This document shows, piece by piece, positions 20,555-61,161 of a stretch of DNA of 64,000 nt. The translations under genes were made by a program, and so were the position numbers. The notes under the pieces are model-generated. The model had not been told where the DNA came from. It did not search any database and was given only the letters and a program-made list of their open reading frames with translations. The DNA lies in assembly GCA_041581135.1 (NCBI GenBank), contig JBFGCM010000003.1, forward strand, positions 9,479 through 73,478, given 5' to 3'. Every line of letters begins with the position of its first letter. Position 1 is the first letter of the stretch. The stretch comes from Acidimicrobiia bacterium. GTDB taxonomy: Bacteria; Actinomycetota; Acidimicrobiia; Spongiisociales; UBA5794.

Positions 20555-21298
20555 ATGGAAGCAGGAGAGCGGCGTGACCCGTCGCGGCAGCGGTGGTTCA
20601 CGAAGTCGGCAACTGTGTACGACGCGATCTACGAGTCGATCCTCGATTACGACGCAGAAACCGAGCTCTTGATGGACATCATCGGCGAGCGGCGCCCGGG
20701 TGCCGAGTCCGTGCTCGAGGTCGGGTGCGGTACCGGTCAGTTCCTTGCGCGGTTGCGACGCGACTTCGGGCGGGTGGTCGGCGTCGACGTGTCCGAGGAG
20801 ATGGTGGCGGTGTGCCGTGCTCGACACCCTGAGTGCGATGTCAGGCTCGACGACATGCGGACGTTCGACCTCGGCGAACAGTTCGACGCGGTGCTGTGCT
20901 TGTTTGCATCGGTCGGCTACGTGCGCACTCTCCACGGTCTGCAGCAGGCGACGAGTGCTCTGGCGCGCCATCTCGCTCCAGGTGGGGTGCTCGTGCTCGA
21001 CGGCTGGATCCGGCCCGAGGACTACGTAGTGGGCCATCGTCACGCGCTGACGGCCCACGCTCCGGGGTTGACCGTGTCGCGTCACTCGCTGGCACACGCG
21101 GGTCCGCCCGGGGAGTCCATGATCGACATGGCGCATCTCGTGTCGACGCCGGAGGGCTTCGACTACTACGTGGAGCGGCACGAGATGGGGCTGTTCGCCG
21201 ACGAGGATGTCGTGGCGGCGATGCGCGCCGCCGGCCTCGAAGACATCGAGGTGCTCGAGTGGAGAGCGCGGGGACGGTACGTGGGGAGTGCACCCTGA
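20555..21298 (+). CDS. class I SAM-dependent methyltransferase
   Basis: ATG at 20555 preceded by GGGGAGG. SAM motif I VLEVGCGTGQF, followed by VVGVDVSEEMV and DAVLCLFASVGY. Confidence 0.85.
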   Translation: MEAGERRDPSRQRWFTKSATVYDAIYESILDYDAETELLMDIIGERRPGAESVLEVGCGTGQFLARLRRDFGRVVGVDVSEEMVAVCRARHPECDVRLDDMRTFDLGEQFDAVLCLFASVGYVRTLHGLQQATSALARHLAPGGVLVLDGWIRPEDYVVGHRHALTAHAPGLTVSRHSLAHAGPPGESMIDMAHLVSTPEGFDYYVERHEMGLFADEDVVAAMRAAGLEDIEVLEWRARGRYVGSAP

Positions 21299-46003: not shown

Positions 46004-46066
46004 GTCCGAAGTCTGAAGTCTGAAGTCTGAAGTCTGAAGTCCGAAGTCCGAAGTCTGAAGTCCGAT
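46004..46066. repeat. heptanucleotide microsatellite (GTCYGAA) x 9
   Basis: Counted unit by unit: GTCCGAA, GTCTGAA x4, GTCCGAA x2, GTCTGAA, GTCCGAT. It lies in the non-coding gap between the convergent glgA and kgd genes. Confidence 0.95.
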
Positions 46067-46110
46067 ATCGTTTCTAGCGCCTCGACGGGTCACCCCGATC
46101 TCGGACTTCG
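46042..46110 (-). repeat. hairpin repeat element, copy C (minus orientation)
   Basis: The minus strand reads CGAAGTCCGAGA, 19 nt, GCGCT, 11 nt, CGGACTTC, the same architecture as copies A and B. The distal arm continues into the heptamer array. Confidence 0.7.
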
Positions 46111-46317
46111 TAGAGCCGGGCCGGCGTGGGGCGGGTGAGGGCTCAGTCCACGTGGAGTCGCCAGCCCGTCGCACGGATGTCGTAGAGGCGGGTCGGCGCG
46201 AGGAGCGCAAACTCGCCTGACCGGTTCTGGCTCGGGCTCCGTCGCGTCGGATCGGGTGTCGTGGAGGCGGGTAGGCGAACGGACGTCGTGCCGCCCACGC
46301 ACCGAACCCACGACCCC

Positions 46318-49300
46318 CTACTCGTAGGCGAGCTCCACGATGCGGCGCTGCTCGCGCACGTGGGTCTTGGGATTGCCGGTTGCCGGGCTGGCGCTCTCCT
46401 TGCGATAGATCCCTCTGCTCGAACGACCGGCGGCCACGAACAGGTACCGCGACATGAACCGCCACGCTCCCATGTTGGCTGGCTCCTCCTGGACCCACAC
46501 CAGCTCGGCGTCGCCGTACGGGGCGAGCACCTCGTTCAGCTCCTCGGCGGGGAAGGGGTACAGCTCTTCGACCCGTACGAGCGCCACGTCGTCGGGCTGG
46601 GCCTTCAGCAAGTCGTAGTACACCTTCCCGGCACACAGCACCACACGGCGCGCACCTGAGGTCACCCGGGAGTCCCCGATGACGCGGCGAAACCCGCCAT
46701 CGCTGAACTCATCGATGGGGCTGTAGGACTCCTTGGTGCGCAGCAGCGATTTGGGCGTCATCACGATGAGCGGCTTCCTGACCGGGTGCAGTGCCTGGCG
46801 GCGGAACATGTGGAAGTGCTGGGCTGCCGTGCTGGGGACCACCACTCGCACGTTCTCCTCTGCCGCGTTGGTGAGGAACCGCTCGAGGCGGGCGCTGGAG
46901 TGTTCGGGCCCTTGTCCTTCGAATCCGTGGGGCAACAGCAGGGTGAGTGACGAAGTCTGGTTCCACTTGTCCTCGCCCGTCATCAGGAACTGATCGATCA
47001 CCACCTGGGCCCCGTTGACGAAGTCGCCGAACTGGGCCTCCCACATGACGAGTGCATCGGGCGCCTCGACCGAGTACCCGTACTCGAACCCCATCGCAGC
47101 GAACTCGCTGAGCAGGCTGTCGACGATACGAAGGGGCGCTTGCTCGGGATGGAGGTCGCGCAGCGGCACCCATTCCTCTTCGGTCTCGTAGTCGACGAGC
47201 GCCGCATGGCGGTGACTGAAGGTGCCGCGCTGGCTGTCCTCACCGGCCAGCCGCACCGGCCGTCCCTCCAACGACAGCGAGCCCCATGCCAGCGATTCGG
47301 CCAGGGCCCAGTCGGCCATCCCGGACTCGAAGAGCGCATGGCGGTCATCCAGGGTCTTCGCCAGCTTGGGATGCACCACGAAGCCTTGCGGCAAGGCATG
47401 GAGCTTCGCCTCGATGGCAGCCAGCTGATCACGGTCGACGGACGTGTCGATCGGAGTCGTCGGGTCGCCCTTCTCGGGCGGTACGAACGGCTCGGGCTCT
47501 TGATCCCTGGTGGCGTCGAACGCCGCATCGAGCTGCTGCTTGAAGGACGTGAGCACCTCCTCGGCTTGCTCGATTGTGATGTCTGCGCGGTTGACGAGGC
47601 GCTCCATGTAGAGCTTGCGCACAGAGCGGTGCTTGTCGATCGCCCGGTACATCCGGGGCTGGGTGTAGGACGGCTCGTCGCCCTCGTTGTGCCCCAACCG
47701 CCGGTAGCAGATCAGATCGATGACGATGTCCTTGTGGAACGCCTGCCGGAACGAAAACGCAAGCCGGGCCATGCGAACCACCGCTTCGGGATCGTCTGCG
47801 TTCACGTGGATGATGGGCGCTTGGACCGCCTTGGCGATGTCGGTGGCGTAGAAGCTCGACCGGGCTTCGGCGGCGCTCGTGGTGAAGCCCACCTGGTTGT
47901 TCACGACGATGTGCACGGTGCCGCCGGTGTAGTACCCGGGGAGCTGGCTCAGGTTGAGAGTTTCGGCAACCACGCCTTGTCCGGCGAAGGCCGCATCGCC
48001 GTGGATGAGGAGGGGCAGCACCAGGTCGTCCGCTCCGGCGCCGCGCCGCTCCTGCTTGGCGCGCACGATTCCTTCGAGCACGGGATCGACCCCCTCCAGG
48101 TGGCTCGGGTTCGCGGCCACTTGGATGTTGATCGTGTTGCCGGCCGGCGAGGTGTGGGATCCATGTGCGCCGAGGTGGTACTTGACGTCACCGGAGAACT
48201 CTCCCTCATGGTCTGCTTCACCTTCGAACTCGCGGAAGATCCTCTCGAGGCTCTTGCCGACGATGTTGGCGAGCACGTTGAGCCGGCCCCTGTGGGCCAT
48301 GCCGATCGTGGCCTCGTCCATGCCGGCATCGGCAGCGGCATTGAGCACGGCATCGATCAGCGGGATCAGCGACTCCGACCCTTCGAGGCTGAATCGCTTG
48401 GCACCGAGAAACTTGGTGTGGAGGAAGCGCTCGAAGGCCTCGGCGTCGTTGAGCTTGCCCAGAATGGCGAGCTTGTCGTCGACGCTCAGTGGCTCACTTG
48501 GGCGCTCCACGTGCGTCTGGATCCAGACCTTCTGGTCAGGCTCCTGGATGTGCATGTACTCGAGGCCGACGGTGCGGCAGTAGGCGTCGCGCAGCAGGCC
48601 GAGGATGTTGCCCAGCTTCATTCGGCTGTGGCCGCCAAGATCGCCGGTGGCGAACTCCCGCTCCAGGTCCCAGATGGTGAGGTTGTAGGTGAGCGGGTCC
48701 AGCTCGGGATGGATGATCGGCGGGTCCTGCCGCAGCGGATCGAGGTCGGCGATGAGGTGGCCGCGCACTCGGTACATGTTGATGAGTTGGAAGACCCGAG
48801 CCTGCTTCTCGGCCCACGGCCGGCTTCCCGGCGGCGGATTCGAGTCGGTGGCCCACCGTGCCGGCACGTACGGGACCGACATCGACGCGAACACGTCGTC
48901 GTAGAACCCATCGTCGCCGAGCAACAGGCGGTGGACTCGTTGGAGGAAGAGCCCGCTCTCGGCACCCTGGATGATGCGGTGGTCGTAGGTGCTGGTCATG
49001 GTCAGCGCGCGTCCCACCCCCGCCTGCGCCAACATGATCGGATCGGCGCCCTCGTACTCGGGTGGGTAGCCAATGGCGCCGACGCCGACGATGAGGCCCT
49101 GGTCCTTCATCAGCCGTGGCACCGATTGCACGGTGCCCACCGTGCCGGGGTTCGTGAGCGTGACCGTGGTCCCGGCGAAATCGTCCGGCGTGATCTCACC
49201 GGCGCGGACGCGGCGGATGACGTCCTCGTACGCCAGCCAGTAGCTGTGGAAGTCCATCTTGTCGACGCCCTTGATGTTCGGGACCAGCAAGGTGCGGGAG

Positions 49301-49917
49301 CCGTCCTTGCGCTCGAGATCGACCGCCAGCCCGAGGTTGATGGACTTGAACCTGACCAGGTGTGGCTCGCCGTCGATCTCGCGGAATGCGGCGTTCATGG
49401 CAGGGCGGTCCATGATGGCTCTCACCACCGCCCATCCGATGAGGTGCGTGAAGCTGACCTTGCCTCCCTCGACCAGGCGGGCGAGCTGGTTGTTCAGGAT
49501 CCTGCGGTTGACTTCGAGCAACTTGGCCGGGAAGGTCCGCACCGACGTGGCCGTGGGCAAGTCCCTGCTCTCGTCCATGCGTTCGGCGATGGTCGCCAGC
49601 GCGCCGCGCAGGGGGACGATTTCCTCGTCGCCGGAGGTGGCGGGCGTAGCTGATTTCTCCGGTGCGGTCTCCGCCGGAGTGGCCGCCGGTTGCGGTGCGT
49701 GCGACGGTGCTTCCGTCGCCGGAGCTGTGGTCGGTACCGGAGCGGTCTCGGTTGCAGGGAGGGTGGTCGGTACGTAGTCGGCGAAGTACTCCCTCCAGGC
49801 CTCGCTCACCGAATCGGGCGCTTCCAGGAAGCGCCGATACATCTGGTCCACCAGCCAGGTGTTCGGACCGAACTCGGCATGGTCGATGCTGGTGTCTGGC
49901 TCGCTCATTCCGTTCAT
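46318..49917 (-). CDS. kgd: multifunctional 2-oxoglutarate dehydrogenase E1 / decarboxylase with N-terminal E2-like succinyltransferase domain (actinobacterial Kgd type)
   Basis: About 1200 aa. Acyltransferase-like segment ending DHRIIQGAESGLFL, followed by the E1 ThDP domain (HRGRLNVLANIVGK, AAFAGQGVV). Start at MNGMSEPD (49917) or MSEPD (49908). Confidence 0.92.
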   Translation of the reverse strand: MNGMSEPDTSIDHAEFGPNTWLVDQMYRRFLEAPDSVSEAWREYFADYVPTTLPATETAPVPTTAPATEAPSHAPQPAATPAETAPEKSATPATSGDEEIVPLRGALATIAERMDESRDLPTATSVRTFPAKLLEVNRRILNNQLARLVEGGKVSFTHLIGWAVVRAIMDRPAMNAAFREIDGEPHLVRFKSINLGLAVDLERKDGSRTLLVPNIKGVDKMDFHSYWLAYEDVIRRVRAGEITPDDFAGTTVTLTNPGTVGTVQSVPRLMKDQGLIVGVGAIGYPPEYEGADPIMLAQAGVGRALTMTSTYDHRIIQGAESGLFLQRVHRLLLGDDGFYDDVFASMSVPYVPARWATDSNPPPGSRPWAEKQARVFQLINMYRVRGHLIADLDPLRQDPPIIHPELDPLTYNLTIWDLEREFATGDLGGHSRMKLGNILGLLRDAYCRTVGLEYMHIQEPDQKVWIQTHVERPSEPLSVDDKLAILGKLNDAEAFERFLHTKFLGAKRFSLEGSESLIPLIDAVLNAAADAGMDEATIGMAHRGRLNVLANIVGKSLERIFREFEGEADHEGEFSGDVKYHLGAHGSHTSPAGNTINIQVAANPSHLEGVDPVLEGIVRAKQERRGAGADDLVLPLLIHGDAAFAGQGVVAETLNLSQLPGYYTGGTVHIVVNNQVGFTTSAAEARSSFYATDIAKAVQAPIIHVNADDPEAVVRMARLAFSFRQAFHKDIVIDLICYRRLGHNEGDEPSYTQPRMYRAIDKHRSVRKLYMERLVNRADITIEQAEEVLTSFKQQLDAAFDATRDQEPEPFVPPEKGDPTTPIDTSVDRDQLAAIEAKLHALPQGFVVHPKLAKTLDDRHALFESGMADWALAESLAWGSLSLEGRPVRLAGEDSQRGTFSHRHAALVDYETEEEWVPLRDLHPEQAPLRIVDSLLSEFAAMGFEYGYSVEAPDALVMWEAQFGDFVNGAQVVIDQFLMTGEDKWNQTSSLTLLLPHGFEGQGPEHSSARLERFLTNAAEENVRVVVPSTAAQHFHMFRRQALHPVRKPLIVMTPKSLLRTKESYSPIDEFSDGGFRRVIGDSRVTSGARRVVLCAGKVYYDLLKAQPDDVALVRVEELYPFPAEELNEVLAPYGDAELVWVQEEPANMGAWRFMSRYLFVAAGRSSRGIYRKESASPATGNPKTHVREQRRIVELAYE

Positions 49918-50029
49918 GGTAACGAGACGACGACGCCGGGTTCGTGCAGGGCGGCGAATCGTCGGTAGCCTGTAGGGCTGACCCCCGACTTCCGGTGCTT
50001 CAGCGTGCTTCGCGAAGTGCCGATGATGC

Positions 50030-53000
50030 ATGGGCAGAGCTCGCGAGGGGCAGTTGGCAGACAGACGACGGCGGTGGAAGAGCCGGCCCTTCCGGGCCGG
50101 ACTGGTTCGCTTCGCGGCATTTGCGATACCAATCGTGGCTGCCGTCGTGGCGGCGATCAGCGCTGCTCAGCTTCTTCCGGTTCCCGAAGATCCGCTCCAA
50201 GAGGTGCTGTGGTGGGTGGCGGTCATCTCGGTTTCATTGGTGGCGCTCTTCGTGTTCGACCGCATCGCTCGCAGGCTGCTGCCGCTGGCGGTGCTCCTCC
50301 GCTTGTCGCTGGTGTTCCCCGACCAGGCTCCGTCCCGCTACCGGCTGGCGCTGCGGTCCGGATCCACCCGCCTCCTCCGGGCGCAGGTGGAGTACGCCCG
50401 GTCGCACGGCATCGACGACAGCCCGACCCGATCTGCCGAGTTCATCCTCTCGCTGACGGCGGCGCTCACTTCGCACGACCGCATCACCCGGGGCCACGCC
50501 GAACGCACCCGGGCATACGCAGACCTCATCGGTGAAGAGCTGAAGCTCGACGATCGCGACCGCAATCTGCTGCGGTGGGCGGCACTCCTGCACGACATCG
50601 GCAAGCTGGCCGTGGCCGCCGAGATCCTCAACCGCAGTCGGCCGCTGAACGAGCCGGAGTGGGAAGCCATCAAGCACCACCCCATGGACGGCTACGACCT
50701 GGCGGCGCCACTCCACGACTTCCTCGGAGAGTGGGCGGAGTCGATCGCCATGCACCATGAGCGGTGGGACGGTTCCGGCTATCCCCGGGGCATCGCCGCG
50801 GATGACATCGCCCTCGGCGCCCGGATCGTTTCGGTGGCCGATGCCTACGACGCCATGACCGCGGCACGCTCCTACAGCCGGCCCGTGCCGGCCGCTGCCG
50901 CCCGCCGCGAGCTGGCCACCCAGGCCGGTAGCCAGTTCGACCCCGCCATCGTGCGTGCCTTCCTCAATGTCTCCATCGGCCGGCTCCGCTGGATCATGGG
51001 TCCGCTGGCCATCCTCGCCCAGCTGCCGTTCCTCGGCGGCTTGCAGCGTGTCGGTGAAGTCGCCGGCGTGGTGGCCGGCGGGGTAGCCGCCGTCGGGGCG
51101 CTCATGCTGGGGGGCGCCGTCACTCCGGACACGCCCCTCATCGAGCCCGGGCCTCGCATCGAAGTGCTCGCCGCCGCAACGGAGGTGGTGGTGGAACCCG
51201 ACGTCGCCGACCTCGAGTCCGTCGAGATCACCTCGGAGCCGCTCTTCGGTACGGCGATGATCCGTCCCGACGGCTCCGTCACGTACGCGCCGAATCCGGG
51301 ATACGAGGGGTCCGACACGTTCACGATCATGACGTGCACCACATCGGGTGCATGCATCGAACAAGACGTGGTCGTCACCGTGACCGCTCCACCGTTGGCA
51401 GCTGGAGAGGAGCCGCTGGACCCGGGACCCACCACCACGATCCCACCGCCGCCGCCCACGACTGCTGCCACGACGACCACGACGAGCGCGCCGACCGGCG
51501 GTGCGACGACGACTACGACGGCGGCGACGACCTCCACGACGGCGGCCGCGGCCACGACGACGACGACCACCGCCGGGGCCACGACAACGACCACGATGGC
51601 ACCCGCGACGACGACGTCCACCACGAGTACCACCACCACCACCACCACCACCACGAGCACGACGATGCCCCCGGGCCCGGCGGTCGTCGCCGATGCGTTC
51701 GTCACCAACGAGGACACGGCGGTGACCGCGTCGGTGACGGCCAACGACCCGGGCCCCGGCCTCGATCTGGTATCGCTGCGCATCGTCACCGGACCCACCT
51801 CGGGAACCGCAGCGCTCGCCGGAGGCGGATCGGTGACGTACACCCCGACGCCGAACTTCTTCGGTGCGGACTCCTTCGTGTACGAGATCTGCGACACGAG
51901 CGGTCTGTGCGCCACTGCCATGGTCGCCGTGACGGTGGTCGCAGTGAACGATGCTCCGGTCGCGGTCGACGACACGGCGTCGACCAACGAGGACGAGGCC
52001 GTGGTGGTCAATGTGTGGATCAACGACAGCGACGTCGAGAGCGACATCGACCCCGCCAGCGTGTCGGTGGACACCCCACCGACGTCGGGCTCGGCTGTGC
52101 CTGACGGCCTGGGCGGTGTGATCTACACCCCGGCGCTCAACACGAACGGCATCGACACGTTCACCTACCAGATCTGTGACTTGGCCGGGGCCTGTTCTAC
52201 GGCGACCGTGACGGTCACGGTGGCCGCCGTGAACGATGCCCCTGACGCCGTGGACGACACCTCTGCCACCGACCCGGGCGTGCCCGTGACCATCGATGTG
52301 CTGGCGAACGACTCCGATGCCGAATCAGACCCGATCGCCGTCACCTCGTGGGATGCCACGTCGACCTTCGGCGGAACGATCACGTGCGGGCCGTCCACCT
52401 GCACGTACACACCTCCCGTCGGCAGCTGGGCCACCACCGATACGTTCACCTACACGATCGCTGACCCCGACGGTGCGGCCGACACCGCCACGGTGAGCGT
52501 CGACCCGAACTTCGTCGTGGCCGAACTGGGCGTGCAGCCGGCGGGACTGGGTGACCAGGTATCGCAGCCGATCCTGCCCTTGACGTTCGATGCGACGCCG
52601 GGCAACGCCACGCTGCCGAACTACGACGCCGACCGCAACCCCGATCCGGGCCTCACCATTCTCATCGGGCCGCCGGGGATCGCGGCACAGCTGGCGGAGA
52701 CCGACCCCGCCAAGTTCCAGCTGTGGGCGCACGCTGCCACGTCCGACGTCGAGCTCGACGGTGCCGTGACGTTCACCATCTGGAGTGCCATGGATGGGCT
52801 GGCCGGAGGACTCACCGGACGGCTTCGGGTCTTCCTGCTCGATTGCCCCGCTTCGACCGTCGACGGCACCGACTGCACGGAGCTGGACCACAAGACCATC
52901 ACGAACATTCCGTGGCCGGCGGCGTGGGAAGAGGTGACCATGAACTTCGGCCCCATCCTGCACACGGTCCCGGCGGGCAATCTGTTGGCCATCAAGGTGG

Positions 53001-53095
53001 TGGTGCCGCCGACGTCGAGCGCCGACATGTGGTTCGCCTTCGGGGCCACGGGCTTCGAGAGCACACTGACGGTTCGAGCCAACTCACCGCTGTAG
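50030..53095 (+). CDS. membrane HD-GYP domain protein fused to Thr-rich linker, cadherin-like modules and an unassigned C-terminal beta-rich domain
   Basis: Two N-terminal TMs. HD-GYP core (HAERT...LLHDIGK...HHERWDGSGYP, about 50447-50960). Two further hydrophobic segments. Poly-Thr/Ala region (about 51425-51673). VNDAP...DD...V..ND.D modules. Confidence 0.85.
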   Translation: MGRAREGQLADRRRRWKSRPFRAGLVRFAAFAIPIVAAVVAAISAAQLLPVPEDPLQEVLWWVAVISVSLVALFVFDRIARRLLPLAVLLRLSLVFPDQAPSRYRLALRSGSTRLLRAQVEYARSHGIDDSPTRSAEFILSLTAALTSHDRITRGHAERTRAYADLIGEELKLDDRDRNLLRWAALLHDIGKLAVAAEILNRSRPLNEPEWEAIKHHPMDGYDLAAPLHDFLGEWAESIAMHHERWDGSGYPRGIAADDIALGARIVSVADAYDAMTAARSYSRPVPAAAARRELATQAGSQFDPAIVRAFLNVSIGRLRWIMGPLAILAQLPFLGGLQRVGEVAGVVAGGVAAVGALMLGGAVTPDTPLIEPGPRIEVLAAATEVVVEPDVADLESVEITSEPLFGTAMIRPDGSVTYAPNPGYEGSDTFTIMTCTTSGACIEQDVVVTVTAPPLAAGEEPLDPGPTTTIPPPPPTTAATTTTTSAPTGGATTTTTAATTSTTAAAATTTTTTAGATTTTTMAPATTTSTTSTTTTTTTTTSTTMPPGPAVVADAFVTNEDTAVTASVTANDPGPGLDLVSLRIVTGPTSGTAALAGGGSVTYTPTPNFFGADSFVYEICDTSGLCATAMVAVTVVAVNDAPVAVDDTASTNEDEAVVVNVWINDSDVESDIDPASVSVDTPPTSGSAVPDGLGGVIYTPALNTNGIDTFTYQICDLAGACSTATVTVTVAAVNDAPDAVDDTSATDPGVPVTIDVLANDSDAESDPIAVTSWDATSTFGGTITCGPSTCTYTPPVGSWATTDTFTYTIADPDGAADTATVSVDPNFVVAELGVQPAGLGDQVSQPILPLTFDATPGNATLPNYDADRNPDPGLTILIGPPGIAAQLAETDPAKFQLWAHAATSDVELDGAVTFTIWSAMDGLAGGLTGRLRVFLLDCPASTVDGTDCTELDHKTITNIPWPAAWEEVTMNFGPILHTVPAGNLLAIKVVVPPTSSADMWFAFGATGFESTLTVRANSPL

Positions 53096-53186
53096 GTGAT
53101 TGAAGCGGGTCTCAGGCCTGGCGCCACACTGCCAACTCACCGCTGTCGGTGATTGAAGCGGGTCTCAGGCCTGGCGCCACACTGCG
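53081..53186. repeat. 53-bp tandem direct duplication (2 copies; internal mismatch at 53094 vs 53147, terminal bases 53133 vs 53186 also differ)
   Basis: AACTCACCGCTGT(A/C)GGTGATTGAAGCGGGTCTCAGGCCTGGCGCCACACTGC occurs at 53081 and again at 53134. Copy 1 holds the stop of the HD-GYP gene. Copy 2 holds the stop of the GH13 gene. Confidence 0.95.
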
Positions 53187-54631
53187 GCCGATCGCCCCGG
53201 CACGCTGAACCGCACGTTGTGCTCGCCGGCCTCGGCCGTCCCGGTGCCCCACACTTTGGCCAGCGTGGCCTGATGGGTGATCGACACCGACTCGGTCTCC
53301 TCTCCGGCGTTCACCGCAACCACCATCGAACCCGGTCCTTTGCCCCTTCGGAAGAGATACAGCATGGCGCCCCACTCCGATGAGTCCGGCCACAGCACCT
53401 GGTAGTCGGGTGCGCGTAGGGCGGCATGCTCGTGGCGGAGCCGGGTGAGGCTCGTGACGGTCTCCAACGTCTCCGTGTCCCAGGTGTCGGGCCGGTCCCA
53501 CGGGAATGAACGGCGGCAGTCCGGATCGCGGCCGCCGGGAAGGCCGACCTCGGTGCCGTAGTAGATGCAGGGCGGGCCGGGGAAGGTCAACAGCAACACG
53601 AGCGCCAGCTCGACCGAGGTGCGGTCGCCGCCGGCGATGGTGAGGATGCGGGCCGTGTCGTGGCTGTCGAGCAGGTTCAGGTTGGCGGTGTTGGCCGCGG
53701 GCCGGTAGATGGACAGTAGGTGGCGCATCTTGTCCCCGTACATGGCCGCATCCACGGGCGGCAAGATCTCGTAGTGGTGGTTGTCCAGGTCCATGCGCGG
53801 GTCCACCCGGCGCCCCGCCGTGAAGGCGATGGTGGGCCCGGTGAATTGGTAGTTCATGGTGGCGTCGAACCGGTTTCCGCGATTGACCCACTCCGCCGCT
53901 TCTCCCCACAGCTCGCCGACGATGTAGAGGTCGGGGTTGATGGCGCGCACCCGGCTGCGGAACTCCTCCCAGAATCCTGGCGTCGTGATCTCGCCGGGCA
54001 CGTCGAGGCGCCATCCGTCGATGCCCTTGCGTGCCCAATGCTCGGCGACCCGCATGAGGTACTCCCGGACATCCGGGTTGTCCGTGTTGAAGGCCGGTAG
54101 CGCCTTCAGTCCCCACCAGGCTTCGTAGTTGGCCGGCTTGGTCTCGTCGTACGGGTGGAGCGGCCACTCGCTGACGCGAAACCAGTCGATCCACGGTGAG
54201 TCGGGTCCGTTCTCGAGGATGTCGTGGAACTGGAAGAACCCGCGTGACGCGTGATTGAACACTCCGTCGAGCACCACACGAACATCTCTGGCGTGAGCTT
54301 CCTCCACGAGCTCGTCGAAGGCGTCGCCGCCACCGAGCAGCGGGTCGACTCGGTAGTAGTCATGGGTGTGGTACCGGTGATTCGACCCGCTCTGGAAGAT
54401 CGGGTTCAGATAGAGCGCGTTGACTCCGAGATCCACCAACCAGTCGAGCTTGTCGACGATGCCGAGCAGGTCGCCCCCTTTGTAGCCGTGGGTCGTGGGC
54501 AGAGCGTCCCAGGGCTCCAGCTGGGCCGTCGGCTGCTCCGTCTTCCCGGAACGGGCGAAGCGATCCGGAAAGATCTGGTAGAAGACGGCGTCCTGCACCC
54601 ACGCAGGCGGTTCGTTGAGTCGGGTGGTCAT
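53165..54631 (-). CDS. GH13 alpha-amylase-family glycoside hydrolase (neopullulanase/cyclomaltodextrinase/alpha-glucosidase-like)
   Basis: Start at the internal ATG (MTTRLNEPPAWVQDAVFYQIFPDRF). The four conserved GH13 regions are recognisable: LNPIF...HRYHTHDY, GWRLDVPGE, GELWGE, LLDSHDT. Confidence 0.9.
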   Translation of the reverse strand: MTTRLNEPPAWVQDAVFYQIFPDRFARSGKTEQPTAQLEPWDALPTTHGYKGGDLLGIVDKLDWLVDLGVNALYLNPIFQSGSNHRYHTHDYYRVDPLLGGGDAFDELVEEAHARDVRVVLDGVFNHASRGFFQFHDILENGPDSPWIDWFRVSEWPLHPYDETKPANYEAWWGLKALPAFNTDNPDVREYLMRVAEHWARKGIDGWRLDVPGEITTPGFWEEFRSRVRAINPDLYIVGELWGEAAEWVNRGNRFDATMNYQFTGPTIAFTAGRRVDPRMDLDNHHYEILPPVDAAMYGDKMRHLLSIYRPAANTANLNLLDSHDTARILTIAGGDRTSVELALVLLLTFPGPPCIYYGTEVGLPGGRDPDCRRSFPWDRPDTWDTETLETVTSLTRLRHEHAALRAPDYQVLWPDSSEWGAMLYLFRRGKGPGSMVVAVNAGEETESVSITHQATLAKVWGTGTAEAGEHNVRFSVPGRSAAVWRQA

Positions 54632-54797
54632 GAGCGGCACTCTATTCGGCGGATCTGAGTTCTCTGTATCGACACCTGGCGGCACACCCATGAGCGCGTC
54701 TGCCCGGCTCATCGAAAGCTCGTTCTCACGGCTCCGGCTACGGGGATAGCCTTCGTGGTAGAGCGGCTCGGGGGAGAGCCGCAGATTGGAGGGAATC

Positions 54798-55241
54798 GTG
54801 AAACATCGGAGCGTGCCAGTTCTGCTGGTGACCGCCTTGGCCGCGCTTGCGCTCGCAACTACGGGTGTCGTGTCGGCGTCGAGCGTCGCCGAGGACGGCT
54901 ACATGGTTGCGTCCGACTTCACGGCGGCCGCCCTGCCGGGCAGCCTCACCATTTCTGCGCCGGAGTGTGCGGATCCGGGGACGACCGTGTCCATCGGGCT
55001 GAGCTATGACGAGGTGTCGCCCACGACAGCCATCGTCAGGCTCAAGCAGCCGGTCAACGATCCGGCGACGTACCTTGCGGAAGAGAAGACCAACGTCCGG
55101 CGGGCCGCCTTGGCATCCACCGGGACGTCACACAACTTCTTCATCGATCCGTTCATCCAGATCGAGGGAACGGCCGTGGTGATGGCCCGGGTGTTGGGGG
55201 CCGGTTCGGCAAGCACGACCTTCGAGGTGCCGTGCCCGTAG
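54798..55241 (+). CDS. hypothetical secreted protein
   Basis: GTG at 54798 after GGAGGG. Signal peptide VKHRSVPVLLVTALAALALATTGVVSA. No recognisable family. Confidence 0.5.
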   Translation: MKHRSVPVLLVTALAALALATTGVVSASSVAEDGYMVASDFTAAALPGSLTISAPECADPGTTVSIGLSYDEVSPTTAIVRLKQPVNDPATYLAEEKTNVRRAALASTGTSHNFFIDPFIQIEGTAVVMARVLGAGSASTTFEVPCP

Positions 55242-55363
55242 ATCGGGTCTGTCACTTCGGATAGCCGGTTTTCCTGGTCATGGCGTCGGTTGCCGTCACC
55301 AACCGAGCGGTGCGATAGCGCCTAATCTCGGCAGGGCTCTGCGACGAATTCGAGGAGATCCTG

Positions 55364-56548
55364 GTGGCTGCAACCGACGTCCCCCATCCCATCGACTTCC
55401 TTGGGGTCGATGCCCTGCTGACGCCCGAAGAGCGCCTCGTGCGCGACACGGCTCGCCAGTTCGTGAAAGACCGCGTGCTGCCCGGCATCGCCGATTGGTA
55501 CGAGGCCGGCACGGTTCCCACGGAGCTGGCCAAGGAGCTGGGCGACCTCGGCATGCTCGGCATGCATCTCACCGGCTACGGGTGTGCCGGGACCAACTCG
55601 GTCAGCTACGGCCTCGCCGCCATGGAGTTGGAGGCCGGCGACAGCGGCATTCGAAGCCTCATGTCCGTCCAAGGCTCACTCGCCATGTTCCCCATCTGGA
55701 AGTACGGCTCCGACGAGCAGAAGGAGCACTGGCTGCCACAGATGGCCGCCGGCGACTTGATCGGATGCTTCGGCCTCACCGAGTCGGACTCGGGATCCGA
55801 TCCCGGCTCCATGCGCACCAACGCCAAGCGCGACGGCGACGACTGGCTGCTCAACGGTTCCAAGATGTGGATCACCAACGGCAGCATCGCCGACGTCGCC
55901 ATCGTCTGGGCACAGACCGACGAGGGGGTGCGTGGCTTCATCGTTCCCACGGACACACCGGGATTCACCACGCAGGACATCCACAAGAAGCTGTCCTTGC
56001 GGGCCTCCGTGACGTCGGAGCTGATCTTCGACGGCGTGCGCCTCGCCGCCGACGCGGTGCTGCCCGGCGTCGTCGGCATGAAGGGACCGCTGTCGACCCT
56101 CAATGAGGCCAGGTTCGGGATCCTGTTCGGCGTGCTCGGCGCGGCCCGCACGTGTTACGAGACCGCACTGAGCTACTCCAAGGAGCGACACCAATTCGGA
56201 ATGCCGATCGCCGCCTTCCAGCTCAGCCAGCGCAAGCTCGTCGACATGATGGTGGCCCTCAACAAGGGCTATCTCACGGCGGTGCATCTGGGTCGGCTCA
56301 AGGACGAGGGCAAGCTGCACCACACCCAGGTGAGCTTCGGCAAGCTGGACAACGTACGGGTGGCGTTGGAGATCGCCCGCACCGCGCGTTCCATGCTCGG
56401 CGCCAACGGCATCACCCTGGAGTACCCGGTCATGCGGCACATGGCCAACCTGGAGACCGTCTACACCTATGAGGGCACCAACGAGATTCACACGCTGATC
56501 CTGGGTCATGCGCTGACGGGATTGAACGCCTTCGGGGCTGCTGGGTAG
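55364..56548 (+). CDS. gcdH: glutaryl-CoA dehydrogenase (acyl-CoA dehydrogenase family)
   Basis: RBS GAGGAG. The N-terminus DFLGVDALLTPEERLVRDTARQFV and the C-terminal YTYEGTNEIHTLILGHALTG are characteristic of GCDH-type ACADs. Confidence 0.85.
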   Translation: MAATDVPHPIDFLGVDALLTPEERLVRDTARQFVKDRVLPGIADWYEAGTVPTELAKELGDLGMLGMHLTGYGCAGTNSVSYGLAAMELEAGDSGIRSLMSVQGSLAMFPIWKYGSDEQKEHWLPQMAAGDLIGCFGLTESDSGSDPGSMRTNAKRDGDDWLLNGSKMWITNGSIADVAIVWAQTDEGVRGFIVPTDTPGFTTQDIHKKLSLRASVTSELIFDGVRLAADAVLPGVVGMKGPLSTLNEARFGILFGVLGAARTCYETALSYSKERHQFGMPIAAFQLSQRKLVDMMVALNKGYLTAVHLGRLKDEGKLHHTQVSFGKLDNVRVALEIARTARSMLGANGITLEYPVMRHMANLETVYTYEGTNEIHTLILGHALTGLNAFGAAG

Positions 56549-56646
56549 GACGCGGTCCGGCGCATCCTGCGTCGCGTGGCCGGCGCGCCCCTGCGATCAG
56601 GTCAGCAGCTGTGCGGCTGACGGGTGCGGGCGCCGCGCTGCCGGCG

Positions 56647-56708
56647 TGCCTCGACGACGTCCGAAGTCCGAGACCGTTGCATTCGGAGAGGCGCTCGAAC
56701 CGGGGTCG
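56647..56708 (+). repeat. hairpin repeat element, copy A (right arm degenerate)
   Basis: It matches copy B at 50 of 62 positions with identical spacing: TGCCTCGACGACGTCCGAAGTCCGA, variable centre, GCGCTCGAACCGGGGTCG. Confidence 0.8.
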
Positions 56709-56761
56709 TGTGCGGGCGGTGGCGCCGGCGCGTACTTGCCTCGTTCCTGTCGGGATGTCCC

Positions 56762-57166
56762 TCAGGATGCGGTGAAGCGGTCGGGGAGGGGTGCACCTCC
56801 GGTCATGAAGCAGAGACAGAAGGGATGGCCGGCCGGGTCGGCATAGACCTGGAAGTCGTCACCCTGGGTTGCGTCAGCAGCCGGCTGCAGCACCCGCGCA
56901 CCCAGCGCCATCACCCGCTCGTGTGCTGTAGGGAAGTCCTCGACCCACAGATCGAGGTGCACCTGTTGGGGTGGTGAACCGTCGGGCCAGTCCGGCGGCA
57001 CATGGTCGGGTGCGTGCTGGACGCCAACTCGGGGCTCGCCGTCGACGATGACCATGTGCCAACCATCGTCCCGATCGACCTCGCCACCGAGTACGCCAGC
57101 CCAGAACGCGCTCTCCTCCTCGAGATCTGCGGCGTCGAAGGTCACGACCTGGAATCTGAGCCTCAT
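56762..57166 (-). CDS. VOC (glyoxalase/bleomycin-resistance/dioxygenase) family protein
   Basis: 134 aa with the typical small VOC layout (FWAGVLGGEV..., PPQQVHLDLWVED..., ADPAGHPFCL). Confidence 0.8.
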   Translation of the reverse strand: MRLRFQVVTFDAADLEEESAFWAGVLGGEVDRDDGWHMVIVDGEPRVGVQHAPDHVPPDWPDGSPPQQVHLDLWVEDFPTAHERVMALGARVLQPAADATQGDDFQVYADPAGHPFCLCFMTGGAPLPDRFTAS

Positions 57167-57421
57167 GGGGCGGCGCTACACGGAGGCCGAGCAAGGGCGA
57201 GGCTCGACGGACACGGAACATCGCGCGGTGTCAGGCTTGTGCTCTCGGCGGCCCAGAGTGGGCCGCCCAAGTGGCAGTGGGACGGTGACGCGGGTGAGTC
57301 GCGTCGCCGCCGCCGCATGGGATGCGGCTGCGACGCTCGCCTGCGCGTTGCCGGGTTGTGATCAGTGGATTGACTTTGGGCTGGTCGTGGGGTCGTGTCG
57401 GTACGAACCGTCGCCAACGGG

Positions 57422-58516
57422 TCAGCCGTTCGGGGGTGATTTGTTGGGTGGGATGAACCGTCGCCGGCCGGGTGGCGACTCCGGATCGATGGTGTAGTGG
57501 CGTTTATGGACCACTACGTGGTGGTGGAACCAACAGAGCAGCGTGAGGTTGGAGGGGTCGTGGCTGCCGCCGTGGGATCGGGGGAGGATGTGGTGGGGCT
57601 CCAGGCGATAGGTGGAAGTGCAGCCGTCGGCGGTGCAGCCTCCGTCGCGGTGACGTACGTAGGCGCGGATCCTTGCCGGGATGGTGGGTCCGGTGGTGGG
57701 AACGGCGGTCAGTCCGTGCCTGTCGACGATGGTCACAGAAGTGGTGCCGACACAGAGGATCTCCTCCAACATCCCGACACCCAACTGCAATCCCGACTCG
57801 GTCAACGCACCGGCTTCGCCGTGGGTCCGTGCGGCCAACTCGGCGTCGACGAACACCTGCGCCTGGGGTCGCCGCGGGTTGCCCGCGGTGCGGTCGTCCA
57901 GCGCCAGCGACACCAACGCGTCGACCCGGCGTTGCGCCACCTGCGGCCGATCCGGGTCGGAGCGGTCACACAGCTCATCGGCTCTTGCGTCCAACGCCGC
58001 CACCAGCATGTCGGCGTCCGTGCCCGACAGGCGCAACGTGCCCGACATCACGGTGCGGTCCAAGTTCGGCTGCAACACCAGCCGCCGCGACTCGAACGCC
58101 GCCGCCTCATCCATTGGGGTCAGGCGTCGTTGCCGGGCCACCAGCCGGGACACGTGATGCACCGCCACCCCCGCCGATCGCGCCACCGTCACCTCGTCGG
58201 CACCGGCATTCACAAGGCGTTGGGTGGCGGCGGCCCGATCGAACGACACGGTGCCGTCTTCCAACGACTCCTGAACGTGACCGGCGTCGGAGCGGGCCAG
58301 TACCGCCAGCTGACCGGCGGTCGACGGCGCCACGTCCAGGCGGCCGGCGATCCACTCCTTCAGCGTGGCGCACCCATCCCGGGTCGGGACCTGGCGGGCA
58401 TCGGCGTCCCGGAGTAGCTCTACCTGGCGGGCACGCAGCCGGCCGACCAGATACTCGACCTCGATGAGCTCCTGCTCCAACGCATCGTCGGTGATCGACT
58501 TAGTTACATCCAACAT
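57422..58516 (-). CDS. DUF222 + HNH endonuclease protein (actinobacterial 13E12-repeat-like family)
   Basis: The N-terminal DUF222-like region has RARQVELL. The C-terminal HNH motif is DGGCTADGC...LEPHHILPRSHGGSHDPSNLTLLCWFHHHVVH. Confidence 0.88.
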   Translation of the reverse strand: MLDVTKSITDDALEQELIEVEYLVGRLRARQVELLRDADARQVPTRDGCATLKEWIAGRLDVAPSTAGQLAVLARSDAGHVQESLEDGTVSFDRAAATQRLVNAGADEVTVARSAGVAVHHVSRLVARQRRLTPMDEAAAFESRRLVLQPNLDRTVMSGTLRLSGTDADMLVAALDARADELCDRSDPDRPQVAQRRVDALVSLALDDRTAGNPRRPQAQVFVDAELAARTHGEAGALTESGLQLGVGMLEEILCVGTTSVTIVDRHGLTAVPTTGPTIPARIRAYVRHRDGGCTADGCTSTYRLEPHHILPRSHGGSHDPSNLTLLCWFHHHVVVHKRHYTIDPESPPGRRRFIPPNKSPPNG

Positions 58517-58588
58517 GGATCACATCATGCCAACTACCTGTGACAAGTAATGGCCGAAGCCGGATCGGAAACCCGCGGTCGGTCGGCA

Positions 58589-58659
58589 TGCCTCGACGAC
58601 GTCCGAAGTCCGACACCACGAAACCGGTACAAGCGCTCGAACCGGGGTCGGACTTCGGA
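58589..58659 (+). repeat. hairpin repeat element, copy B (intact 13-bp stem)
   Basis: TCCGAAGTCCGAC (58602-58614) and GTCGGACTTCGGA (58647-58659) are perfect inverted repeats around a 32-nt loop containing GCGCTCGAACC. The left flank TGCCTCGACGACG is shared with copy A. Confidence 0.85.
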
Positions 58660-58759
58660 AATCGGAATCGGCGGGGTTGGAGCGGGCAGGCGAAGTTGGC
58701 GACCAGCCGACCGCCCCGACCCCGAGCATGCGGGAAAGTGCCGGCGGTGGCCGGCGAAC

Positions 58760-59614
58760 CTAAGACAGGCCCCGTACGAAAGCGCGCCGCCACTCCTCGG
58801 TGGTGTCGACCTGGTTGAAGGTGTACACGTGGAACGCCTCGATGTCGATCTCGTCGTCGAGGAGGGCGGGGCCGAGGCGCTCGATCAGCACGTCGGGGGA
58901 ATAGCCGCCGGGCTTCACCAGTTTGCCCACCAGGCTGGTGTTCTTGGAGAGGAACCGCATCGAGGCACCGATGCCGATGCGAGTGGAGATCGTGATCAGC
59001 TTGTGGAGGGGTGCCACGCCGGGCAGCCCGATGTGGACCGGCAGGGTGATGCCTTCCGCCCGCATTGCCCGGATCCAGGAGACGATCACGTCGGGGTCGA
59101 AGCACATCTGGGTGGCCATGTAGCCGGCGTAGCGCTGCTTGTCCTTGAGCGCCTGGAGCAAGGCGTCGTCGGGGATCACCGCATGTCCTTCGGGGTATGA
59201 CGGGATGCCGATCTCGGTGAGGCCATGTCCGATGGACTCCATCGCCTCGAGCAGCGACAGGCCGTCGAAGAACTCGCCGGGGTCGTCGGCGTCGCCGCCC
59301 ACCACGAATGCCTTGGTGATGCCGGCCTGGTCGAGCAGGCCGAGAATGCGTGCCAGGTCCTCCTTGTCCTTCACCATGCGGGCCGAGAGGTGAGGAATGA
59401 CGTCGTAGCCCTTCTCAGCAAACTCCATCGCCAGGCTGACGGTGGCGTCGAGCCCCTTGGCCGGTGAGGCGGTGACGGTGACGGTGACGTCCGGCGGCAG
59501 ATACTGCGCCTGCTCGTAGACGTTCTTGAGCGGTATCACCTCGTACTTGGGGCGCATGAGGATGTCCGTGACGGCAGCCGCCACCTCCGCAGGCAGTTGC
59601 TCTCGTTTCGCCAT
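58760..59614 (-). CDS. metF: methylenetetrahydrofolate reductase family protein
   Basis: Start at the internal ATG (MAKREQLPAEV). MTHFR-like TIM-barrel pattern (YEVIPLK..., TVTASPAKG, IPHLSARM, FVVGGD, IPSYPEGH). Confidence 0.75.
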   Translation of the reverse strand: MAKREQLPAEVAAAVTDILMRPKYEVIPLKNVYEQAQYLPPDVTVTVTASPAKGLDATVSLAMEFAEKGYDVIPHLSARMVKDKEDLARILGLLDQAGITKAFVVGGDADDPGEFFDGLSLLEAMESIGHGLTEIGIPSYPEGHAVIPDDALLQALKDKQRYAGYMATQMCFDPDVIVSWIRAMRAEGITLPVHIGLPGVAPLHKLITISTRIGIGASMRFLSKNTSLVGKLVKPGGYSPDVLIERLGPALLDDEIDIEAFHVYTFNQVDTTEEWRRAFVRGLS

Positions 59615-59622
59615 GTCGCTCC

Positions 59623-61161
59623 TCACACGTTCGAGTCGGGGAAAGATGTCTTGCGCCGCTCGATGTACTCGCGCAGCTCTACGTCCTTGGCCTCGTCGAG
59701 TGGTGGTGGCTCGTACTCGGCCAGCAGGGTCTTGCACCGTTCACTCGCCCTGGCGATCGAGTCCCTGGCGCCTTCGTCTTCCCACTGTTCGAAGCTGTTG
59801 TTGTCGGCCATCCCCGAGCGCCAGAAGGCTGTCTCGAAGTTCGCGATCGTGTGTTCGTTGCCGAGGAAGTGCTGACCCGGCCCGCTCTCCAAGATCGCAG
59901 TCAAGGCCTGGCCGTTCTCGGAGATGTCCACCCCTGCCACCAGCTTGGCCGCCATGGAGGCCTGGTCGGCGTCGAGGATGAACTTCTCGTAGCCCATGGT
60001 GAGCCCGCCTTCCAGCCAGCCGGCGGTGTGCAGCACGAAGTTCACGCCGGCGTGGAGCGTGGGCATGAAGGTGGCCATGCTCTCGTAGGCGGCCTGGGCG
60101 TCGGGCACCTTGGATGCCGTCAGGTTGCCGCCACTGCGGAACGGCACACCGATGCGGCGTGCGAGTTGGGCGACGGTGTAGAGCATGAGCGCCGGCTCCG
60201 GGGTTCCGAAGGTCGGGGCACCGCTCTGCATGGACATCGACGAGGCGAACGATCCGAAGATGACGGGTGCACCCGGGCGTACCAGCTGGGTGAAAGCCAT
60301 GCCCGCCAGCGCTTCGGCGAGGGTCTGGGTGGCGGCGCCGGCCACGGTGACCGGGGCCATGGCGCCGGCCAAGATGAATGGGGTCACCAGCACGGCCTGG
60401 TTGGCCTCGGCGTATGCCTTGGCCGAGCCGAGCATGGCGAAGTCCCACGACAGCGGTGAGTTGGCGTTGGCCAGGCCCAGGATGACGGTGTGTTCCTCCA
60501 TGAACTCGGCCCCGAAGAGGATGCGCGCCATCTCGACGCTGTCCCGTGCCCGGTCCGGGTGGGTGACCGAGCCCATGAACGGCTTGTCGGAGTACTTCAT
60601 GTGGGCGTAGACCATGTCGAAGTGCCGCTTGTTCACCGGCAGGTCCACGGGCTCGCACACGGTGCCGCCGGAGTGATGCAGTCCCGGCGACAGGTAGGCC
60701 AGCTTCACGAAGTTCTCGAAGTCGGTCATCGTGGCGTACCGGCGGCCTCCGTCCAGGTCGCGCACGAAGGGCGAGCCGTAGGCAGGCACCAGCACCGTGT
60801 GCGGGTCGCCGATGGTGACGCTCTTGTCAGGGTTGCGGGCGTGCTGCACCCACGTCGCCGGAGCCGACGCCTGAACGATCTGACGGCACATGCCGCGGGG
60901 GAACCGCACCCGGGTCCCATCCACGTCGGCGCCGGCGGCGGCGAAGATCGAGAGGGCTTCGTCGTAGCCGACGATCTCCATGCCGACTTCTTCGAGGATG
61001 GTGTCGGCGTTGTGCTCCAGGATCTCCAGGCCCTCGTCGCTGAGCACCTCGTACGGGGCAAGCCGTCGAGTGAGAAAGCTCTCTCGGTCCATCACGGCCC
61101 CAGCCCGGGCCGCTTGGCGCGCCGCACGGCCTCCGGATCTGCGCCGACGGGTATCGCTCAT
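59623..61161 (-). CDS. MttB-superfamily (trimethylamine methyltransferase family, non-pyrrolysine) methyltransferase
   Basis: The ATG overlaps the upstream stop (ATGA, 61158-61161). 512 aa collinear with the MttB family (LSDEGLEILEHNADTILEEVG..., FGTPEPAL...). There is no in-frame TAG. Confidence 0.85.
   Translation of the reverse strand: MSDTRRRRSGGRAARQAARAGAVMDRESFLTRRLAPYEVLSDEGLEILEHNADTILEEVGMEIVGYDEALSIFAAAGADVDGTRVRFPRGMCRQIVQASAPATWVQHARNPDKSVTIGDPHTVLVPAYGSPFVRDLDGGRRYATMTDFENFVKLAYLSPGLHHSGGTVCEPVDLPVNKRHFDMVYAHMKYSDKPFMGSVTHPDRARDSVEMARILFGAEFMEEHTVILGLANANSPLSWDFAMLGSAKAYAEANQAVLVTPFILAGAMAPVTVAGAATQTLAEALAGMAFTQLVRPGAPVIFGSFASSMSMQSGAPTFGTPEPALMLYTVAQLARRIGVPFRSGGNLTASKVPDAQAAYESMATFMPTLHAGVNFVLHTAGWLEGGLTMGYEKFILDADQASMAAKLVAGVDISENGQALTAILESGPGQHFLGNEHTIANFETAFWRSGMADNNSFEQWEDEGARDSIARASERCKTLLAEYEPPPLDEAKDVELREYIERRKTSFPDSNV

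Follow-up and report, generated by a model that had tools for sequence, protein, structure and literature searches.

Three intergenic elements, here called A, B and C, in a 64-kb stretch of Acidimicrobiia contig JBFGCM010000003.1 (the window; 67% GC) are read here, at odds of about one in two, as a small lineage-restricted family of sequences resembling repetitive extragenic palindromic (REP) elements, with arms built of heptamer microsatellite units. All three copies are extragenic, a trait of REPs and REPINs, and their coordinates and sequences are as given in a preliminary description of this DNA. In copy C, Tandem Repeats Finder (TRF) detected a period of 7 over 46004-46062 (8.4 copies, 94% matches, score 97), and the element as a whole consists of nine GAAGTCY units, 35 nt and a single inverted unit, with the final unit of the array forming one side of its stem. 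Copy B reads CGACGAC-GTCCGAA-GTCCGAC ... GTCGGAC-TTCGGAA-ATCGGAA-TCGG, with two to three imperfect heptamer units per side, and copy A has two units, the unit number varying from 2 to 9 among the copies. Copy C has the run of at least three tandem 7-nt units in non-coding DNA that marks a heptanucleotide simple sequence repeat (SSR) of the kind known as short tandemly repeated repetitive (STRR) sequences. Together, these patterns show that the arms consist of short stretches of a heptanucleotide microsatellite (GTCCGAA/GTCTGAA) set in inverted orientation, which places the elements in a known, widespread and poorly understood class. The preliminary description had not recognised them as any described element, rightly so as regards the exact sequence, but it had missed the heptamer-microsatellite nature of the arms.

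Comparison of the copies indicates that A, B and C are one family, related beyond chance. Local alignment of A with B (56633-56708 vs 58572-58650) extended for ~78 nt without indels, and 49 of the 61 core positions were identical, in agreement with the indel-free 50 of 62 counted previously; the likeness reaches ~10 nt further left (GYCGGC). A hidden Markov model (HMM) built from A and B only found C in the inverted orientation (46056-46112, minus strand; E=2e-4 in the 64-kb window), and the same HMM matched the other orientation of C with E=0.054, covering the arm alone. The score of the 35-nt centre of C against the A and B centres was reached in 11 of 20,000 shuffles, either orientation being allowed (p=5.5e-4). 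In addition, the exact arm pair GAAGTCCGA-N25-50-TCGGACTTC gave three matches in the window, confined to B and C, and none in 100 shuffles, and exact occurrences of the 10-mer CGAAGTCCGA in the 64 kb lay only inside the three elements. An HMM of the left flank alone matched A and B only within the window. This flank had been described as a trait of these two copies, and they do share it; MAFFT alignment revealed that C shares it too, its outer flank GGCTCTACGA aligning with the A/B flank GCCTCGACGA, with one heptamer unit fewer in C than in A and B.

The differences between A and B are confined to a single block. All 12 of them, among 61 aligned positions, fall inside a 19-nt span (p ~1e-6); the blocks beside it, of 24 and 18 bases, are identical (42/42), and the variable block itself agrees at 7 of 19 positions. 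One of the shared sequences is a 9-nt box in the centre of each element. This box was absent from all 129 arm-pair matches listed from a collection of genome contigs, a search described below. The box is unmatched in public collections, so the box and flank are private to this lineage; the box is probably a sequence inherited by descent within the family and not a widely conserved functional motif. The arm architecture, unlike this lineage-private box, is generic.

Copies B and C also have the short imperfect palindrome with a hairpin that is typical of REPs and REPINs, whereas A cannot fold. In B, we found the perfect 13-bp stem previously described, TCCGAAGTCCGAC (58602-58614) pairing with GTCGGACTTCGGA (58647-58659) around 32 nt; its predicted fold was ~-30 kcal/mol, with z-scores against dinucleotide shuffles of -1.7 (plus strand) and -2.4 (minus strand). 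In C, for which a stem of 9-10 bp had been proposed, GAAGTCCGA (46057-46065) pairs with TCGGACTTC (46101-46109) over 9 bp (10 if a G-U pair is counted), and the stem is extended by a further 4 bp (AUCG/CGAU), the predicted fold being -21 to -23 kcal/mol. The right arm of A, said to have decayed, is indeed reduced to TCG, and folding predictions did not form the hairpin. Immediately inward of the arms, B and C have different bases, which are complementary in each (ACC/GG in B, AUCG/CGAU in C).

The preliminary description had also considered a structured RNA with a functional box and had suggested a search of Rfam. RNAalifold recovered the outer stem and a 3-bp extension only, with a single compensatory pair (C-G to U-A in C), and a fold comparison gave no inner fold common to the three centres. 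The Rfam search of the whole window at the gathering score returned 0 matches, and no family covered the elements in 45800-59000 even at E<=10; likewise, no Rfam family was placed at the hairpins of 18 other heptamer-hairpin loci. With no Rfam family, no shared inner fold, one compensatory pair and a box matched nowhere else, the structured-RNA proposal is not supported.

The positions of the elements relative to genes are consistent with a REP-like reading. The stop codon of an upstream gene (glgA-like, glyoxalase-like or MTHFR-like) stands 54-100 nt before each of the three, and all are oriented alike relative to that gene. As had been noted, two copies are between convergent genes and one is between co-directional genes: C lies between the glgA-like and kgd-like genes, A between an acyl-CoA dehydrogenase gene and the glyoxalase-like gene, and B between the MTHFR-like and DUF222/HNH genes. 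The MTHFR-like gene is the last of an MttB/corrinoid methyltransferase operon that is conserved in two relatives. The elements resemble the REP, BIME (bacterial interspersed mosaic element) and REPIN sequences of E. coli, Pseudomonas and other bacteria, which are short imperfect palindromes, repeated and strictly extragenic, commonly in 3' untranslated region (UTR) or convergent positions, with conserved stems and freer loops. Unlike REP/REPIN, they were seen in three copies, have loops of 25-35 nt and show a 7-nt arm periodicity with a variable unit number; moreover, no 5' GTAG motif is common to the copies, and no REP-associated tyrosine transposase (RAYT) was found among the open reading frames (ORFs) that were scanned. 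Roles in mRNA 3'-end protection and termination have been proposed for REP/BIME (bioRxiv 10.64898/2026.03.23.713779; PMC3116915).

If the elements act at all, they probably do so as REP-like 3'-UTR hairpins. In such a scheme, a palindromic intergenic sequence would have gained its heptamer periodicity by slipped-strand expansion and contraction, an origin consistent with the run of four identical GAAGTCT units in C, and either selection for pairing or intrastrand template switching may have kept its symmetry. Local copying of the unit would have followed, A and B lying ~1.9 kb apart and A presumably being a copy broken at the start of its right arm. Once transcribed from upstream, B and C would each form in the 3' UTR a stem of 13 bp (interrupted in C by one mismatch) with a loop of 25-32 nt, and this hairpin would impede 3'-exonucleases or read-through in the manner of E. 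coli REP/BIME, not as a canonical intrinsic terminator. A would be a non-folding relic.

Several observations weigh against the REP-like reading. A and the 136-nt region of C folded no better than their dinucleotide shuffles. None of the three elements has a T-run or U-tract, and their loops are far above the typical 3-8 nt of intrinsic terminators; with these two features the elements are not canonical terminators, although they share with such terminators, including the U-tract-less actinobacterial ones, a GC-rich stem that follows the final gene of an operon or separates convergent genes. A consensus scan found no canonical terminator anywhere in 44000-60000, and no canonical promoter was found at A, B or C. 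Stable folds were also predicted between the stop codons and all three elements: windows of -36 kcal/mol after glgA and -31.5 kcal/mol after MTHFR, and a 70-nt window at 56578-56647 with a predicted minimum free energy of ~-42 kcal/mol (GCCGGCGCGCCCC...GGGCGCCGCGCTGCCGGC), which begins 30 nt past the acyl-CoA dehydrogenase stop codon and overlaps the left flank of A. With such folds near the stop codons, the elements may be dispensable. The low copy number, three within 12.7 kb, is unlike that of the dispersed, high-copy classic REPs, and heptamer hairpins sampled more widely showed no enrichment in convergent intergenic regions, as judged by a crude ORF caller that is unreliable at high GC. 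Finally, the block mosaic between A and B is not explained by simple neutral divergence of a duplicate; patchwise template switching inside the palindrome is a plausible cause. The predicted fold at 56578-56647 could be the real transcript-end structure of the acyl-CoA dehydrogenase/glyoxalase convergent pair, and at the ends of other genes in the window there are unique GC hairpins that are tighter.

The main rival, which we regard as somewhat unlikely, is that the elements are functionless by-products, that is, heptamer arrays and a local segmental duplication that gene-poor intergenic DNA on the 3' side tolerates and that have a function at neither the RNA nor the protein level. The presence of only three, clustered copies within the ~80 kb searched, the broken state of A, the box matched nowhere else, and the runs of identical units in the C array, which are typical of recent slippage, would all be expected under this explanation, as would the general abundance of heptamer SSRs (PMC4679880); the stable folds between the stop codons and the elements, too, suggest that the elements may be unneeded at these 3' ends. 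Mere by-products, however, would hardly be expected to keep arms and box perfect between A and B around a scrambled block (p ~1e-6), to have a stem extension that is complementary yet different in B and C, or to be consistently oriented relative to the upstream gene, and the same arm is found between convergent genes in other Acidimicrobiia.

The reach of the family was examined with nhmmer, using a manual alignment of A, B and C, and with a covariance model (R1), in the window, in ~16 kb more and in all fetched loci. The genome sequence covered amounted to ~80 kb (the window, a 4.5-kb extension and the 11.5-kb contig of locus L122). Neither the HMM nor the covariance model found further copies in these ~80 kb of genome or in the fetched loci; all three copies lie within 12.7 kb, and the other ~67 kb examined are without a copy. 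The preliminary description had held that a lack of further copies together with a lack of conservation would speak against a family, and this is half the case, none having been found in the ~80 kb or in public metagenomes. A sister contig (GCA_041611855.1, JBFIMF010000002.1) is 99.9% identical and carries identical elements with no insertion polymorphism, and the next relatives, at 66% protein identity or less, have the operon in common and not the downstream DNA. The full arm+box+arm pattern gave 0 matches in 241 million JGI metagenome records. A looser arm+box pattern matched 24 loci in the JGI metagenomes, all of them coding sequence, from two conserved gene families. The matches L125, L127, L128, L132, L136-L138, L142, L146 and L147 correspond to the conserved 5' end of a gene, ATGGGTCGCATATTCGAAGTCCGAAA... 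(MGRIFEVRK...), and show that the 21-base degenerate pattern can be satisfied by conserved coding sequence alone. No paper containing the element sequence was found in the literature.

These searches also bear on mobility. The elements had been called REP/MITE-like, the latter term referring to miniature inverted-repeat transposable elements (MITEs). The REP-like half of this label fits best, the elements being extragenic, palindromic, repeated and located at gene 3' ends. The MITE half is not supported: inverted arms are present, but the copies have unrelated sequence in their 19-nt internal block, inspection of the element ends by eye revealed no target-site duplication, and there is no transposase in the scanned ORFs. 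We consider it distinctly unlikely that the copies belong to a mobile REPIN/MITE-type element moved by a transposase (a RAYT or another) that acts in trans from elsewhere in the genome, the window holding three of many copies. The extragenic palindrome architecture would suit such an element, as would the GTAG beside the arm of C (CTTCGTAGAG); three copies per ~80 kb would amount to ~100 per genome if evenly spread, and other genomes with the arm pattern have multi-copy palindromes with conserved arms (those flanked by GTAGGTCGGAGTGAGC in a Poribacteria metagenome-assembled genome, or MAG, and those in a Hyphomicrobiaceae MAG). Against this, the Pfam scan found no Y1 transposase, RAYT or other transposase in the 30 window ORFs that it covered, of ~40 gene-like ones; the centre is not conserved as copying predicts; and the empty ~67 kb, the zero related copies in JGI metagenomes or in IMG/VR, and the sameness of the elements in the sister assembly all point away from dispersal. 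As for integrons, the arms do not fit the R''/R' cores (RYYYAAC / GTTRRRY) of attC sites, and no integrase was found among the scanned ORFs.

Table 1. Parts of the elements and neighbouring genes, in positions of the window
Feature	Position	Strand	Content or relation	Basis
Copy A	56633-56708	+	Flank, left arm, centre with box, TCG only of right arm	Sequence, alignment, folds
Copy A, left arm	56659-56671	+	GTCCGAAGTCCGA	
Copy A, box	56691-56699	+	GCGCTCGAA	
Copy B	58572-58674	+	Flank, left arm, centre, right arm, trailing units	Sequence, fold
Copy B, left flank	58572-58601	+	GGTCGGTCGGCATGCCTCGACGACG; common to A	A/B local alignment; flank-only HMM
Copy B, left arm	58601-58614	+	Two heptamer units, GTCCGAA-GTCCGAC; 58602-58614 is the 5' stem side	Sequence, fold
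Copy B, centre	58615-58646	+	Block differing from A, then box, then CCGGGG	
Copy B, block differing from A	58614-58632	+	19 nt	
Copy B, box	58633-58641	+	GCGCTCGAA	
Copy B, right arm with degenerate heptamer units after it	58647-58674	+	GTCGGAC-TTCGGAA-ATCGGAA-TCGGCGG; 58647-58659 is the 3' stem side	
Copy C	46000-46117	Inverted vs A/B	Array, centre, single-unit arm, flank	
Copy C, expanded heptamer array	46000-46065	+	GATGTCC, (GAAGTCT)x4, (GAAGTCC)x2, GAAGTCT, GAAGTCC, GA	TRF, sequence
Copy C, centre	46066-46100	-	35 nt; minus-strand reading GATCGGGGTGACCCGTCGAG-GCGCTAGAA-ACGATA	
Copy C, box	46072-46080	-		
Copy C, single-unit arm and flank	46101-46117	-	Arm TCGGACTTCG; minus-strand reading GGCTCTACGAAGTCCGA; homologous to A/B flank GCCTCGACGA(CGTCCGA)	MAFFT, HMM
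Glycogen synthase-like gene (glgA-like)	44587-45933	+	C array starts 67 nt past its stop codon	
kgd-like (2-oxoglutarate-dehydrogenase-like) gene	46318-50031	-	Convergent; stop codon 208 nt from C	
Glyoxalase-like gene	56762-57166	-	A ends 54 nt beyond its stop codon	
DUF222/HNH endonuclease unit	57296-58547 (gene 57422-58516)	-		Pfam; blastn vs paralog locus L122
MTHFR-like gene	58760-59614	-	B starts ~100 nt beyond its stop codon	

Next to B lies a DUF222/HNH endonuclease unit, and the same genome contains a paralog with 82% protein identity at locus L122. The two units aligned in blastn at 76.7% over 1260 nt (window 57296-58547, L122 5719-6976); the gene, ~30 nt upstream and ~126 nt downstream are shared at 77% DNA identity, as in a REP13E12-type repeated unit with defined boundaries. 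The unit boundary is 25 nt from B, and A, B and the glyoxalase gene are outside the unit. No arm motif was found at the L122 locus, and no repeat element was found at the locus of a 58%-identical HNH homolog (L123). We considered whether A and B might bound the DUF222/HNH element, as its termini or as att sites, and rejected this, as the homology stops at 57296-58547 and the paralog is without the repeats. Since the homology with L122 excludes A and B, the repeats are not part of the HNH unit, which appears simply to have landed 25 nt from B.

This neighbourhood could also suggest guide-like RNAs working with the endonuclease, in which arms and box would serve as a scaffold and the 18-20-nt variable block as the specificity segment. 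Such a role would give meaning to the sharp flanking of a fully divergent 19-nt block by invariant blocks and to the 25-nt distance of B from the HNH unit, and the variable block of C has a single match of this kind in the window, to 20567-20586 at 17 of 20 positions (GAGCGGCGTGACCCGTCGCG). We nevertheless hold it to be highly improbable. The L122 paralog and the L123 homolog are without the element, A and C are not beside an HNH gene, the three centres have no common inner fold, and no precedent is known for RNA guidance in DUF222 proteins; furthermore, a 17/20 match is within chance for a 128-kb search at 67% GC (0.05-0.3 by our own estimate).

The heptamer arms, in contrast to the box, recur widely. 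The arm pair CGAAGTCCGA-N28-48-TCGGACTTCG was found at 120 or more loci in many phyla of the 596-Gb genome contig collection, where by our own estimate ~11 would be expected by chance. The matches listed came from Acidobacteriota, Gemmatimonadota, Planctomycetota, Verrucomicrobiota, Bacteroidota, NC10, Nitrospirota, Chloroflexota, Poribacteria, Hyphomicrobiales, Actinomycetota and others, and were mostly inverted arrays of 7-nt units with unrelated centres. In the matched loci, period 7 predominated among tandem arrays (119), followed by periods of 6 (25), 8 (5), 5 (2) and 9 (1). The arrays that lay outside the selection made by the search pattern numbered 45 and had many different unit sequences; for 19 of them, an inverted partner stood no more than 200 nt away. 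Two other Acidimicrobiia MAGs (L110 and L114) have hairpins with the same arm and unrelated centres between convergent genes. No match to the arm pair was found in IMG/VR (2.9 million viral contigs).

Individual loci illustrate the range of such structures. Inverted heptamer arrays form long palindromes at L008 910-977, L060 2941-2991, L094 2953-3002, L002 5071-5193, L038 6302-6366 and L101 7348-7429. In Candidatus Poribacteria MAG SB0677_bin_25, a multi-copy family of 48-nt palindromes, CGAAGTCCGACA-N24-TGTCGGACTTCG, was seen (L009, L021, L034, L037, L045, L047, L058, L074, L076 and L081); its 12-mer arm is common to copy B of the window, and the palindromes are nested in longer inverted flanks, TGTAGGTCGGAGTGAGC ... 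GCTCACTCCGACCTACA, an arrangement that looks like a classic GTAG-type REP/REPIN. The Hyphomicrobiaceae MAG SRP237561_co1_281 contains at least 12 copies of CCCG-CGAAGTCCGACA ... TGTCGGACTTCG-CCGG with conserved outer flanks (L007, L011, L015, L026, L082, L086, L105 and L109), whose centres are fully variable and 24-44 nt long; often two copies stand within 0.3-2 kb, and L015 has a 271-bp tandem duplication with one copy inside.

A broader proposal can be drawn from this distribution, namely that the window elements are local representatives of a pan-bacterial, unnamed class of inverted heptanucleotide-unit hairpins, often with a YCCGA/TCGGR core. Such hairpins would be made or recognised by a conserved mechanism with a 7-nt register, either as a footprint of polymerase slippage or through a heptamer-binding nucleic-acid protein, and their register-shiftable, length-tunable stems would set mRNA 3'-end stability or termination. 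We consider this proposal unlikely as it stands. No paper treating inverted heptamer arrays as a class was found in the literature.

Tandem heptamers as such have been described repeatedly. As summarised in PMC4679880, heptanucleotide repeats form the most abundant class among the long SSRs of prokaryotes, polymerase slippage has been put forward to explain them, and TAACTGA repeats occur as tandem heptamers in Beggiatoaceae. Cyanobacteria likewise have tandem heptamers, in both orientations in Nostoc, and an unknown binding partner of heptamer repeats has been speculated on (bioRxiv 10.1101/2022.06.06.494920). The window elements are like the STRR and cyanobacterial repeats, the Beggiatoaceae repeats and the long SSRs of Mrazek et al. 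in that units of 7 nt, some differing by point changes, stand in tandem in intergenic DNA, nine of them in C. Those repeats, however, are mainly direct arrays, often just 5' of start codons, whereas the present ones are inverted around a unique centre, lie 3' of genes and have a flank and box common to the copies.

In Geobacter metallireducens, multicopy "putative global regulator binding sites" consist of ~5 tandem heptamers and are mostly paired, and their class 3 has the consensus MTYCTGA (PMC2700814). Like the window elements, these are multicopy intergenic tandem heptamers, drawn in the figures as paired, strand-switching structures, and the Geobacter unit is alike with AGTCTGA/AGTCCGA at 6 of 7 positions, a comparison that rests on the figure legends (PMC2700814). 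They belong to a different phylum and are read there as protein-binding sites. SARP-type regulators also bind heptameric direct repeats (PMC5930380). By analogy, the window elements could be double-stranded DNA binding sites for a regulator or nucleoid protein that recognises inverted tandem GTCCGAA arrays, a reading that the heptamer periodicity of the arms and precedents for heptamer-repeat binding (PMC5930380; PMC2700814; bioRxiv 10.1101/2022.06.06.494920) would favour and that we find improbable. The sites are downstream of genes and not at promoters, and it is only through the landing of the mobile HNH unit that B stands upstream of the HNH gene; half-sites separated by 32-35 bp, with 2 vs 9 units per site, are atypical for one regulator; and no candidate protein is known.

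The elements can also be compared with the terminator pairs formed by DNA uptake sequences (DUS) in Neisseria and uptake signal sequences (USS) in Haemophilus, in which a short conserved motif is likewise found downstream of genes in inverted pairs. The Neisseria DUS GCCGTCTGAA happens to have GTCTGAA at its 3' end. Unlike DUS/USS, the motif here is not over-represented outside the three elements, and we found no evidence of competence.

Other repeats were observed in the window. At 53078-53185, a 53-bp unit is tandemly duplicated with 98% identity, also in the sister assembly; the duplication spans the gap between a convergent 1021-aa HD/cadherin-like gene (end 53095) and an alpha-amylase-like gene (end 53165). 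The ORF at 50030-53095 contains, at 51470-51663, a low-complexity tract rich in ACC/ACG/CAC trinucleotides within its HD-domain/Big_9/cadherin-like protein, and a 3-bp (ACC) deletion at 51629-51631 in the sister assembly makes this a length-polymorphic coding repeat. Tandem coding repeats of 150 nt, in 5-6 copies that are 60-80% identical, occupy 10156-11003 of a 1140-aa ORF (7612-11034), and a repeat spaced by 426 nt lies at 12195-12885 in a DUF7467 protein gene (11724-13679).

Taken alone, the three copies matter little, representing one more lineage-specific family of extragenic palindromes in a poorly studied Acidimicrobiia lineage. The block mosaic between A and B is a small, concrete puzzle that may report template-switch patch mutation inside palindromes. 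The pattern behind the copies could matter more, because inverted 7-nt arrays with variable centres recur across phyla with period 7 dominant; if these are indeed tunable 3'-end hairpins, or the footprint of slippage or recognition, they would link the prokaryotic excess of heptanucleotides to REP-like post-transcriptional control.

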